Assembly (NCBI GenBank): GCA_038874135.1
Contig: JAVZCZ010000001.1
Location: forward strand, 704,001-768,000
Source of the DNA: Candidatus Woesearchaeota archaeon
GTDB taxonomy: Archaea; Nanobdellota; Nanobdellia; Woesearchaeales; 0-14-0-80-44-23
DNA: 64,000 bases
Reading direction: 5' to 3'
The notes below the pieces were generated by a model that made no database searches, was not told where the DNA came from, and saw only the letters and a list, made by a program, of their open reading frames with translations. Each line of letters opens with the position of its first letter. The first letter of the stretch is position 1. Shown piece after piece: positions 46,547-64,000 of this stretch. Made by a program: the position numbers and the translations under genes.

Positions 46547-46723
46547 ATGGGAAGGCAGCAGAATAAGGAAACCAAAGTTCTCAATATCCGCTTTTCGCCA
46601 GAAATAATCAGATGGCTGGATTCTCTTGTTGAAAAGAAGATATACTCTTCCCGATCAGAAGCCATAAGGGACTTTCTCCGCGAATTTGTTCTTAAAGCAG
46701 GAGGTGAAGAAGCTGAGCAATAG
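46547..46723 (+). CDS. Ribbon-helix-helix (CopG/Arc/MetJ) protein, not in ORF track
   Basis: Hand translation MGRQQNKETKVLNIRFSPEIIRWLDSLVEKKIYSSRSEAIRDFLREFVLKAGGEEAEQ (58 aa); Y.SRSEAIR signature. Confidence 0.88.
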   Translation: MGRQQNKETKVLNIRFSPEIIRWLDSLVEKKIYSSRSEAIRDFLREFVLKAGGEEAEQ

Positions 46724-46925
46724 CATAGTGAGTGTTAGAATTCCTCTATCATTAGCTCAGCAGCTTGAACGCCTCTCAAAAAAAGGTCACTATCTTAACC
46801 TGAGTGAGGAAGTAAAAAGTATAGTGCGAAAGAGATGGCTGGAGCATCTGAATTCTGAATCGCGTCTTTCCGAAATAAAAAATGAGCTTAAGGCAGAGCT
46901 TGCCTTGGAGTTGAAGAAAAAATGA
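46704..46925 (+). CDS. Ribbon-helix-helix protein
   Basis: IVSVRIPLSLAQQLERLSKKGHYLNLSEEVKSIVR; start uncertain (GTG 46704, or CTG 46713 after GGAGGTGA). Confidence 0.8.
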   Translation: MKKLSNSIVSVRIPLSLAQQLERLSKKGHYLNLSEEVKSIVRKRWLEHLNSESRLSEIKNELKAELALELKKK

Positions 46926-61800: not shown

Positions 61801-64000
61801 ATTCGGCACTAACTACCAGGGCAGCTGAAAAATGGTTCTATATAGACACACAGAATCCCTCAGTAGAATTGCACCAGCCGGAAAACTTCATAGTTCTAGG
61901 AAGCAGCCTTGTGTTGTTCAACTTCACTGCATATGACGAAATGGCTTTCAACCTATCATGTAACCTGACAGCTGATAATATAATCAGAATTTCCGGCATA
62001 AACTCTCTAAACAGTACACCTACAATAGTTAATTACACCCTTTCTATGGGGCAGCACTACTGGAATGTCACCTGTAGAGACCTTGCAGGAAACATTAACA
62101 CGAGCGAGACTAGAACATTTAATATAACAAACACTCCTCCTGAAGTTACCCTCATCTCCCCTCCTAACAACTACTGGGATAGAATAGGCAACATAACATT
62201 CATATTTAATGCCACAGACACAGGCCTAATTTCAAACTGCTCACTAATAATAAATGGCCAGCTGAACCAGACTAAAAATTCAACTTTCTTAACTAACGGC
62301 ATAAACAACTTTACTATTCTAAATATGGAATCGGGAGTTTATCTTTGGGAAGTAAACTGTACTGATGAGGGAAACCTGAGCACAATAGCAGGACCTTTCA
62401 CGCTAAATGTTGATAAGAGCGTACCTTCTGTTCAGCTCGTATTCCCATCAAACTACTACAACTCCTCAGCTTCCTCTATTGTTCTGCAATTCATAACTAC
62501 AGATGCTCATTCAGCAAACCTCTCCTGCAACTTAACAATTGATGGCATTCTAAATTCAACAGACATAATAGCCCAAAATAATAGTTTAGTCTCACAGCCC
62601 ATAACCTTCTATGATGGAATTCACAATTGGAGTGTCTCCTGCTCTGATCTTGCTGGAAACCTGAATTCTACAAACACCTGGTATTTCAACATTTCAGAAA
62701 AACCTTCAGTATCGCTAAGCAGTCCTGCACCTAACGCCTGGACTAATGGTAATGTCACTTTCACATTTACAGCGTCTGACAATGACGGGCTTTACAACTG
62801 CTCTTTATTAATAAATGGAGCAGTCTATCAAACAAAGAATTCATCGCAACTTACAAATGGCGGACAGAACAACTTCACTGTAACAAATTTGCTTGAAGGA
62901 ATAAACCAGCAGTGGACAGTAATCTGCTTTGATTTGGGAATATACAAGAACTTCTACTCACCATCTACAAGAATATTCCATGTGGATAAAACGCCTCCAG
63001 CAATAACTCTTAACTACCCTGCTGATTCAGCTCAGATAAAACAGAAGAATGTCAGCTTTAATTTCAGCGCCTCAGATAACTTCGCTTCTAACCTCTATTG
63101 CAACCTGTCCATAAACGGCCAGATTAACACTTCTGAAATAGCTGTTCAGTCAGGAAGTTCAGTTATCGTGAATGTTTCAGGATTTCCTAACGGTTTATAC
63201 TACTGGAATGTCTCCTGTAGGGATTATGCTTACAATGTGAACTGGAGCGAGACAAATTCTTTTAATGTTTCAGTTCCTCCAGAGGTGTTTTTAGAATACC
63301 CCCTTGAAGGGCAGTGGGACAATTCTGAGAATGTAACATTTTATTACTTAGTAACATCAAATGCAGAGTTACAGTCATGTTCTCTCATAATTAACGGGCA
63401 GTTAAATCAGACTGACAATTCTCCAGTTAGTTCAGCATACAACAATTTTACCATTTTCCTAATGCCTGAAGGCTATTACACTTGGATGGTAAACTGCACT
63501 GATTCATATTGGCTAACCGGTTCTTCAAATTTGAGGAACCTCACCATTGACAGACAAGCTCCTTGGATAGTGCTAAATTCTCCTTCTAATTCTTCAATTG
63601 TTGACTCTAACTATGTAACATTTAACTGGACTGCTTTTGACATGATGGCAGATAATATAAGCTGTGACCTATACGTAGATGATTATTTAAGAGAATCAGA
63701 AATATATTCTAAAAATGGAACACCTACCACTAGAACATACATATACTCTGACGGCACCTACTATTGGAATGTTTCATGTCGCGACCCTGCCTATAACATT
63801 AATTGGAGCCAAACTTATAATTTCACTGTTGAGGCACCTCCAAATGTCACTCTCATAAGTCCTTCTAACTATAACTGGAGCACCGCTTATAGTATAACTT
63901 TTGCTTACTTACCTCAAGACCCAATAGGGATAAGACAATGCACACTCTACTTTGATGGAAGCCCTAATCAGACTGATTACGACATAGAAGCTAACCAGCT
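58830..64000 (+). CDS. Giant secreted Ig-like repeat surface protein (>1720 aa, truncated by window end), not in ORF track
   Basis: ATGA overlap at 58830; signal peptide MNSSKFFKLIILGFIIVVGLL; repeated D..PP.V.L.SP...F.Y...D...NCSL...W.V.C.D..GN...SE.R units; the same frame reads as this repeat at the window end (FAYLPQDPIGIRQCTLYFDG). Confidence 0.88.
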   Translation, partial: MNSSKFFKLIILGFIIVVGLLSQSKADSIQAVYGNTQLILTDKPQYTLGESVKINILIPTQLLSGMNVEIDTPASRYQLLDSNLSEVYFTPQQEGNYTIKISSAAGNLISSTSFLVLRKSEVEIPSSDSTSPKLSAKNWKGNYQKILRQEYLPANKKLSIEFSELSIQKIDFYNVSNPNGELKIEDVPLSYVENFSGRAARSFAIDPTLLEFTYAEIYFTATANELWKCREYDFSTRSCAGRYVKIMDTIPGRQYILHLTKEDPLYTEVWNNITCTCQNTGPNNGWAYCEVFCPVNIPIPTDALDGFIQILGYNVTITTSYPAGGYITPNSGMHYGFFDRDQLKSNGNESLIGYVAYDGPGTTTQLIYNTSMAPSGAYAFNRANCPTWTSGYCTWYVFLNSTAKSSKVKRPVTVNITLNSINWTWNYTTPAPSNITINLTSPADNTALGFRNVNFSYIPISSSPVSNCSLFINITGSWNAVATSYSIQNNSVNSINYTLSNDGEYLWNIRCYAGDISSFALYNRTLIVDTAPPSVTLLSPNNNSFSNTSIISFIYNVSDNFNIANCSLILDNVLVATSYAVTKYVPQNITYALSNGVHNWSITCFDFAGNFNISESRIINISAVPTIWDRRWYETSTSDYTSTANISLANLRDSTENSISVSVPVSTSYTLVDAISPYIGSNGAFVPKGTNVSFSGEFSTSPNAKGVISWFLYQTEGSTKNLLCNYGNGGSLGAPISSTTTASCTIQNDTLMLPTNRLQLIIIYYNNFKNLVSVTHYWDGTRLSFVEFSNFTTLGTLSVDLSYPDTDITVGQNELFNMSCTVNCSGGSCLNTLVYAQYNTSSTAFTNIGSSGNLILNTGETNPHSLGNINQSYTTTFLIKGNLASTNNIRCVAVSNYSNATGQIIRRVVVGDTTPPTVSLGNPANFSWLKSKTVTIYYTPSDNSGITNCSIYLNDILNYTLNSVPNGIEQNFTFHNLSDGLYNWTVACTDNSALTTRAAEKWFYIDTQNPSVELHQPENFIVLGSSLVLFNFTAYDEMAFNLSCNLTADNIIRISGINSLNSTPTIVNYTLSMGQHYWNVTCRDLAGNINTSETRTFNITNTPPEVTLISPPNNYWDRIGNITFIFNATDTGLISNCSLIINGQLNQTKNSTFLTNGINNFTILNMESGVYLWEVNCTDEGNLSTIAGPFTLNVDKSVPSVQLVFPSNYYNSSASSIVLQFITTDAHSANLSCNLTIDGILNSTDIIAQNNSLVSQPITFYDGIHNWSVSCSDLAGNLNSTNTWYFNISEKPSVSLSSPAPNAWTNGNVTFTFTASDNDGLYNCSLLINGAVYQTKNSSQLTNGGQNNFTVTNLLEGINQQWTVICFDLGIYKNFYSPSTRIFHVDKTPPAITLNYPADSAQIKQKNVSFNFSASDNFASNLYCNLSINGQINTSEIAVQSGSSVIVNVSGFPNGLYYWNVSCRDYAYNVNWSETNSFNVSVPPEVFLEYPLEGQWDNSENVTFYYLVTSNAELQSCSLIINGQLNQTDNSPVSSAYNNFTIFLMPEGYYTWMVNCTDSYWLTGSSNLRNLTIDRQAPWIVLNSPSNSSIVDSNYVTFNWTAFDMMADNISCDLYVDDYLRESEIYSKNGTPTTRTYIYSDGTYYWNVSCRDPAYNINWSQTYNFTVEAPPNVTLISPSNYNWSTAYSITFAYLPQDPIGIRQCTLYFDGSPNQTDYDIEANQ

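Follow-up and report, generated by a model that had tools for sequence, protein, structure and literature searches.

A predicted SPEARE-type surface motor and its partner genes in a woesearchaeal genome

At one end of a 64,000-nt stretch of a woesearchaeal chromosome lies a train of genes for adhesins, small RHH proteins and two membrane-anchored ATPases; judged by its sequence, this is the DPANN surface-motor system of SPEARE type in its woesearchaeal form. The stretch (hereafter the window; G000:C1:704001-768000) belongs to a genome that is a single contig of 909,956 bp and 99.4% complete and has Woesearchaeota metagenome-assembled genomes as its nearest named relatives, and the archaeon, with its small genome (0.9 Mb), is probably host-dependent. 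Ten genes on the + strand run from 46547 to the end of the window (Table 1), with junctions that overlap by 4-40 nt or abut; the only intergenic gap, of 176 nt, splits the train into two units. Unit 1 comprises an RHH gene, an RHH-like gene, Surf and ATPase-A, in that order, and unit 2 comprises two RHH-like genes, ATPase-B, K, CC and an adhesin with immunoglobulin (Ig)-like repeats. The two motor genes are 530 nt apart and have only two RHH genes in between. An earlier note on this DNA had described these genes as co-oriented and mostly overlapping, and all ten + strand open reading frames (ORFs) were confirmed at their positions. The RHH pairs, Surf, K, CC and the giant adhesins are probably co-transcribed with the motors in overlapping genes, and the arrangement is far beyond chance because the identical order recurs in dozens of species.

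Table 1. Genes, domains and repeats of the surface-motor locus, numbered from the first nucleotide of the window.
Feature	Position	Strand	Content or supporting match
RHH protein 1, 58 aa	46547..46723	+	Pfam RHH_1 3.4e-5, 24.1 bits vs cut-off 20.5
RHH-like protein 2, 79 aa	46686..46925	+	CdrS/VapB RHH matches below threshold; homologues at the equivalent operon position in 40 loci
Surf, 1172 aa	46922..50440	+	Signal peptide, PKD, CarboxypepD_reg, one membrane helix, 214-aa cytoplasmic helical tail
ATPase-A, 793 aa (P0001)	50401..52782	+	Signal/anchor, two Ig-like stalk domains, membrane helix, HerA-clade motor, tail
Motor cassette copy 1, exact 1156 nt, G+T-skewed	51239..52394	+	100% identical to 55419-56574
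RHH-like protein 3, 66 aa, first in unit 2	52959..53159	+	RHH match to the NikR N-terminus, 1.9e-6 (below cut-off)
RHH-like protein 4, 65 aa	53122..53319	+	MazE/NikR RHH matches below cut-off
ATPase-B, 1180 aa (P0002)	53312..56854	+	Helix 1 (N-in), Fs, two CarboxypepD_reg, two Ig-like stalk domains, helix 2, motor, Lys/Glu-rich tail
Fs domain of ATPase-B, residues 47-263	53450..54100	+	Profile homology to free secreted subunits and adhesin C-termini
Motor cassette copy 2, exact 1156 nt	55419..56574	+	100% identical to copy 1
K protein, 274 aa, cytoplasmic	56851..57675	+	Lys-rich disordered N-terminus and conserved helical C-domain
CC, 385 aa, cytoplasmic	57676..58833	+	SMC coiled-coil-like match 1.9e-5
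Giant Ig-repeat adhesin (P0153), first 1723 of 2346 aa	58830..64000	+	Big_7 1.1e-19, Big_13 4.8e-16

Each ATPase contains a HerA-clade motor domain (51238-52440 in ATPase-A and 55418-56620 in ATPase-B) in which the Walker A, Walker B and invariant REFR and ISQ (Arg/Gln) motifs are all intact. In ATPase-A, Walker A is GATGGGKT (51394-51417), Walker B is LLVYDEVH (51769-51792) and the REFR motif lies within REFRKWG (51853-51873). Pfam recognizes only the P-loop end of DUF87/HerA_C in the motors (DUF87 in ATPase-B, 4.7e-9), and none of the curated NCBIfam models came near its cut-off (NF040937, 34.6 bits vs 800; NF040819, 25.3 bits vs 970). A profile of 35 homologous motor domains (A1) searched against the PDB was more informative, matching HerA (4d2i) at 1.6e-15, IcmO at 4e-4, FtsK at 2e-3, VirB4 at 0.03 and TrwB at 0.08. 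An AlphaFold (AF2) model of the motor with a pLDDT of 90 had HerA as its top match in Foldseek, and VIA-align gave Z scores of 24.8 for HerA (root-mean-square deviation 2.8 over 250 residues), 23.9 for DndH, 23.5 for VirB4, 19.3 for TrwB, 17.3 for FtsK and 16.5 for EssC. The motor has HerA rather than VirB4/TraG affinity, and the placing of both ATPases in the HerA/FtsK superfamily by the earlier note is supported.

HerA (4d2i, 9x1l, and the anti-phage HerA proteins) is the best match in sequence and structure for the RecA-type core and shares its Walker and Arg/Gln motifs, but the motors described here are not canonical HerA proteins. About 50 residues separate the membrane helix from Walker A, compared with about 150 in the alignment to HerA 4d2i, and the motor model has just two short strands in this interval. 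There is therefore no room for a HAS barrel, and the membrane helix stands in its place. The NurA/Mre11/Rad50 context of HerA is likewise missing here, and the curated HerA models score about 35 bits against the 800-970 that they require. The genome encodes a soluble 538-aa HerA-like protein (at 548697), a NurA match (G000:C1:656501) and a second DUF87 protein elsewhere, and NurA and soluble HerA are absent from the conserved operon in the 79 loci described below. In line with the earlier note, the ATPases are distinct from the soluble HerA and NurA of the genome.

The topology of the ATPases can be read from the distribution of N-glycosylation sequons and of charge. The hydrophobic helices lie at residues 256-279 of ATPase-A and 680-702 of ATPase-B, and sequons occur solely on the N-terminal side of them: the ectodomains have a density of 3.2 per 100 aa, and the cytoplasmic parts, of 513 and 477 residues, are free of them. 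The sequence RRKRVLASRRY follows the helix and satisfies the positive-inside rule. This distribution, together with RRKR after the helix, places the motor inside the cell, where the earlier note had also put it. ATPase-B begins with a basic stretch followed by its first helix, and its two helices leave both the N-terminus and the C-terminus inside; the ectodomain of about 640 aa is therefore an extracellular loop. The ectodomain of ATPase-A (about 220 aa) is homologous over its entire length to the membrane-proximal stalk of ATPase-B (BLAST, 1e-9), which makes ATPase-A a minimal form, and ATPase-B has extra distal domains beyond those of ATPase-A (CarboxypepD_reg, 4.4e-22 in Pfam). The C-terminal tail of ATPase-A is acidic/basic with a DUF5752-like motif. 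A glycosylation cluster upstream in the window (32661-38810), which encodes an AglB/STT3 oligosaccharyltransferase (943 aa), a family-2 glycosyltransferase and a UDP-GlcNAc 2-epimerase, is in keeping with the many sequons that the surface proteins carry.

The proteins encoded with the motors lie on both sides of the membrane. Surf (PKD, 6.9e-12; CarboxypepD_reg, 1.2e-8) has its membrane helix at 49718-49795, with 38 sequons in the extracellular part and 2 in the cytoplasmic tail. K has 42 Lys or Arg residues among its first 100 and no hydrophobic segment, and CC has no membrane helix. Searches of Pfam, NCBIfam and Atlas with CC and K returned only coiled-coil-like noise, and no similarity was found between the C-domain of K and the cytoplasmic tail of Surf. 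The three RHH-like proteins (2, 3 and 4) cross-match each other in iterated hidden Markov models (HMMs), and proteins 3 and 4 also match homologues of RHH protein 1. The adhesin at the end of the window, described earlier as an Ig-repeat protein of >1700 aa, is indeed one, with 5.6 sequons per 100 aa; its full length is 2346 aa (to G000:C1:769870), and it ends in an Fs-type domain without a C-terminal membrane helix. The genes that come next, past the end of the window, encode a second adhesin (2612 aa), also with an Fs-type C-terminal domain (L030:7868-15706), and then a cytoplasmic protein of 164 aa that has a DUF5752-like motif, two Fs subunits that are free (256 and 230 aa) and a secreted protein of 305 aa (L030:15875-19331; the two intervals together correspond to G000:C1:769867-781330). 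The second adhesin and the genes after it probably belong to the same surface-motor system. Both giant adhesins have ordinary N-terminal signal peptides, which speaks against the suggestion in the earlier note that the motor drives export of the giant protein.

The Fs domain links the motor to the adhesins. It sits right after helix 1 of ATPase-B, just outside the membrane, and a profile made from it found two free secreted proteins of the same genome in hmmsearch (P0155, 5e-22; P0156, 2e-21). Alignment of the Fs profile with the C-terminal domain of the giant adhesins by hhalign gave a probability of 98.3% (E = 2.1e-14). Across loci, the domain occurs at the N-terminus of 49 of 79 ATPases, in 14 small free proteins and at the end of 12 large proteins; ATPase-A and many homologues keep the motor without it. 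An AF2 model of Fs with a pLDDT of 87 had no match in the PDB (best Foldseek E-value 0.28; best VIA-align Z 2.9 over 48,161 chains), a result that does not prove a new fold.

The motor and its neighbourhood are strongly conserved. The motor family has 361 cluster representatives at a threshold of E<1e-30, with the motor C-terminal in all of them and proteins of about 400 to 6253 aa; open frames in relatives reach 11,830 aa. Ectodomains of about 200 to >11,000 aa on a conserved motor are the pattern expected for contact proteins. At least 582 loci encode the motor in species-representative genomes, and every one of the 80 best bears a Woese-, Pace- or Nanoarchaeota label. Across 79 species loci from these three groups the recurring order is RHH, RHH, Surf, ATPase, K, CC, a protein of about 200 aa in some cases, and a giant adhesin. 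Counts by iterated HMMs, restricted to loci with enough flanking sequence, put CC downstream of the ATPase at 40 of 63 loci and a K homologue no more than two genes downstream at 45 of 63; the conserved juxtamembrane-helix-tail region of Surf is encoded directly upstream in 42 of 57 and an RHH gene lies upstream in 39 of 57. Paired motor genes recur in L017, L024-L026, L029, L032, L045, L046, L071 and L100, and L032, a Woesearchaeota metagenome-assembled genome from Kamchatka, has the two-unit layout exactly as in the window. In a nanohaloarchaeal locus (L110) the gene after the SPEARE-type gene matches the CC profile (E = 3e-37) and an RHH gene comes next; the motor-CC pair therefore spans DPANN phyla. 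Many motor homologues have TPR or DUF5752 tails.

Some minor features of these loci deserve mention. In the L110 SPEARE-type protein, the K profile gives a weak match (E = 1.2e-5) to the motor's helical bundle at its C-terminal end (residues 3555-3625), and K may carry a copy of the motor's helical hairpin. At the K position of one relative (L015:5937-7196) lies a gene whose 419-aa product combines a CBS pair (2.1e-26) with a DUF5752-like motif, which hints that the slot holds a nucleotide-sensing regulator. Short A-type ATPase units without CC repeatedly precede a convergent gene for a membrane protein of about 555 aa with no match in Pfam (L016:11671-13338, - strand; likewise in L033, L039, L050, L053, L064, L076, L079, L083, L086, L087, L094, L099 and L103). 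Finally, the operon is borne by many records named "TPA_asm: uncultured Methanosarcinales archaeon" (L037, L042, L044, L050, L051 and others) with 55-62% identity to the Woesearchaeota copies, and the Methanosarcinales labels on these bins look wrong.

Proteins of this type have been reported before. Hamm et al. (2019) described very long nanohaloarchaeal proteins, the SPEARE proteins, that are mostly extracytoplasmic and have a helix near the C-terminus (PMC6642349). The intracellular portion was the most conserved, similar sequences were noted in Woesearchaeota and other DPANN archaea, versions of 655 and 717 aa were listed, and PSG99524.1 and PSG99792.1 were named as matches (PMC6642349). 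Reva et al. (2023) described the layout of adhesin, membrane helix and ATPase, gave the intracellular part a new annotation, that of a VirB4/TraG-like ATPase with a coiled coil after it, pointed to a second ATPase gene downstream, and proposed secretion into the host on contact (PMC10266531). In a homologue search restricted to giant proteins we recovered PSG99524.1 and PSG99792.1, whose C-terminal domains are 45% identical to P0001:270-680 over 365 aa (E = 1e-108 and 5e-108, respectively). The core of the system is therefore a member of the published family, and the description of the apparatus as undescribed, made in the earlier note, fails for the motor; since that note had counted a family already assigned to a known system as a refutation, its claim is refuted in part. 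The partner set (two RHH proteins, Surf, K and CC) and the Fs link are described in neither PMC6642349 nor PMC10266531.

The locus shares with SPEARE proteins an adhesin-rich extracytoplasmic part, a membrane helix on the C-terminal side, a conserved cytoplasmic domain and a second ATPase gene nearby. It does not share their giant size with laminin-G and many adhesion domains. The ATPases here are 793 and 1180 aa long, and Ig-like and CarboxypepD_reg are their sole domain types in the ectodomain apart from Fs; laminin-G, protease and toxin-like domains were looked for without a match. Giant relatives with Laminin_G_3 exist. The ectodomains are short here, and the giant adhesins are separate secreted proteins. 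The motor, annotated in print as a restriction enzyme and then as VirB4/TraG, has HerA affinity, so its annotation shifts from the published VirB4/TraG towards HerA. DPANN archaea, which lack most biosynthesis, pose the question of how the host is held and tapped, and SPEARE-type proteins are the main named candidates. The locus adds to the SPEARE-type motor a fixed and widely conserved set of partners, of which CC reaches across DPANN phyla, and a shared domain with no matched fold that ties the motor ectodomain to free subunits and giant adhesins. Moreover, the short forms are far more tractable for expression and structural work than the proteins of 6,000-9,000 aa studied so far.

What might such a system do? 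Given its architecture and topology, with intact catalytic motifs, conserved partners and the Fs link, the best explanation, which we hold tentatively, is that a SPEARE-type hexameric ring motor moves a polymer, likeliest DNA, across the membrane at a contact site held by adhesins. The layout resembles that of VirD4/TrwB, Streptomyces TraB, FtsK/SpoIIIE, crenarchaeal CedB/CedD and the type VII secretion protein EssC, in which an N-terminal anchor is followed by a membrane-facing hexameric P-loop motor, although the curated CedD score was not reached (NF053655, 21-32 bits vs a cut-off of 600, on the P-loop only). By analogy with VirD4/TrwB, FtsK or Streptomyces TraB, the motor would assemble as a hexameric ring flush with the membrane, to which ATPase-B would contribute 12 helices per ring. 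ATPase-B has two helices with both ends in the cytoplasm, as do TrwB and VirD4, but the loop between the helices is a few residues there, 640 aa here and >11,000 aa in relatives. Through contacts between Fs domains, the motor ectodomain may be joined to the adhesins or to a fibre made of Fs subunits, which would position the motor where the cell holds a partner cell. ATP hydrolysis would then drive the polymer through the ring and across the membrane at the contact, with CC, K and the Surf tail as scaffold or regulators. DNA is favoured as the cargo because motors of the HerA clade translocate double-stranded DNA, the operon also encodes RHH and Lys-rich proteins, and the genome is as small as 0.9 Mb.

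Several observations weigh against this proposal. The system may work like the membrane pumps that translocate DNA or protein at cell contact, but partner channel or relaxosome genes such as theirs are not present here, and across the 79 loci the operon has no conserved multi-spanning channel protein, nuclease or relaxase. One or two helices per subunit may be too few for a pore as wide as DNA, and the RHH pairs may be mere autoregulators. The Lys-rich ends are not conserved across homologues. The system is also patchy by family, being carried by 43 of 251 high-quality genomes sampled across the phylum, and is therefore accessory.

An alternative that we regard as unlikely is type IV-secretion-like effector export, in which a VirB4/TraG-type ATPase pushes proteins into a host cell held by the Ig domains. 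It has been proposed for homologues (PMC10266531), and the paired ATPase genes here and in relatives agree with it. The structural Z of VirB4 (23.5) is nearly tied with that of HerA (24.8), FtsK-like motors of the EssC/EccC type, with Z scores of 16.3-16.5 against the motor, export proteins, and CC and K, which have no signal peptides, are possible substrates or adaptors. Profiles, however, favour HerA over VirB4 and TrwB by 13 orders of magnitude. The N-terminal domain of VirB4 (PF03135) had no match in this 99.4%-complete genome, and TraG (PF02534) reached its cut-off only on profile positions 8-80 (20.2 bits vs 20.1). No multi-spanning protein is conserved in the operon across the 79 loci, nor are VirB3/6/8-like or pilin genes, although no searches aimed at these families were made. 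CC and K have no conserved C-terminal signal. Polybasic C-termini were considered as a common signal and rejected: all cytoplasmic parts here end in runs of Lys or Arg, but their homologues do not (mean net charge +0.2 to +1.7, as in other proteins).

It is also conceivable, if doubtful, that there is no cargo, and that the motor serves as a membrane anchor and an ATP-driven assembly, tension, turnover or signalling module (a receptor-ATPase) for the Fs fibre and the adhesins, with CC, K and the Surf tail as a cytoplasmic plaque. Fs lies a few residues from helix 1 of ATPase-B and is common to free subunits and adhesin C-termini, as would be expected of a basal anchor. A scaffold is suggested by the conserved CC and by the TPR or DUF5752 tails of many homologues, and the CBS pair at the K position in one relative suggests nucleotide sensing. 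To our knowledge, however, polymer translocation is the sole known role of HerA/FtsK motors, ATPase-A and many homologues retain the motor without Fs, and fibres built by strand exchange assemble without ATP.

A bolder form of the DNA-translocation proposal would make Fs the building block of a new archaeal surface fibre, with ATPase-B as its basal subunit, the giant adhesins at its tip and a HerA-type ring at its foot, the whole forming a conduit for DNA or protein between the DPANN cell and its host. We consider this quite improbable. Were it true, an Fs fibre with a HerA motor would be a functional analogue of the conjugative pilus made from unrelated parts.

Antiviral defence or superinfection exclusion, in which a membrane HerA would sense or expel viral DNA at decoy receptors, is very unlikely. 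Many HerA proteins belong to defence systems, the SIR2-HerA and DUF4297-HerA structures are among the top matches of the motor, the best PADLOC match is mad8 (1.1e-15), and the distribution is patchy. Against this, the conserved operon has no effector such as Sir2 or a nuclease, the PADLOC matches are limited to the generic HerA core, and across an order the operon is both syntenic and vertically coherent, besides being tied to adhesins. That the locus is the remnant of a conjugative or viral element is hardly credible: RHH and HerA/FtsK genes are common on archaeal plasmids and viruses and the motor cassette is of odd composition, but no relative was found among 2.9 million viral contigs, the operon has no integrase, relaxase or capsid genes, the same chromosomal order is kept in dozens of species, and the odd composition extends neither beyond the repeat nor beyond this lineage.

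That composition has a separate explanation. The earlier note had called the two motor domains identical, and the exact repeat of 1156 nt was confirmed; the identity runs from the first cytoplasmic codon onwards and stops after the helical bundle. The cassette is 75% G+T, and its third codon positions are 97% G or T (0.5% A, 2.6% C). In L032, a close relative, the two motor copies are 99.84% identical over 1246 nt with a G+T fraction of 0.77. Among the nine other two-motor loci, eight have copies with 70-82% identical DNA of normal composition, and for those of L100 blastn found no match. A tree of 86 motor domains pairs the copies of G000, the genome of the window, with each other and does likewise for those of L032, whereas it places the A and B copies of L045, L046, L071 and L100 in different deep clades. 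The identity of the cassettes is a lineage-specific, G+T-skewed gene conversion, a concerted evolution resembling that of GRINS, and is separate from the mechanism of the motor. A general need for mixed rings, offered in the earlier note as the selective reason for homogenization, was rejected as the cause, since homogenization is confined to G000 and L032 and the nine other two-copy loci are not homogenized.

GRINS have been described in bacteria, mainly in Streptomyces polyketide synthase genes, with archaea not mentioned (PMC8256042). The cassette shares with them an exact repeat within a gene cluster, an intense skew, a recoded conserved domain and homogenized paralogues (PMC8256042), and differs in being archaeal, in an AT-rich genome and skewed towards G+T. 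It thus represents an archaeal case of skew-associated gene conversion. Two antisense ORFs over the cassettes, 51223-52113 (- strand, 296 aa) and 55409-56293 (- strand, 294 aa), were set aside as by-products of the skew and not genes; they stay open only because stop codons are almost lacking in the A+C-rich antisense strand. A second GRINS-like tract occurs in the window in an unrelated gene, that for a 776-aa Cys-rich secreted protein (40000-42330, + strand). The region 40000-41600 is strongly G+T-skewed, and within it an exact internal repeat of 201 nt (40099-40299, identical to 40657-40857) is 79% G+T.

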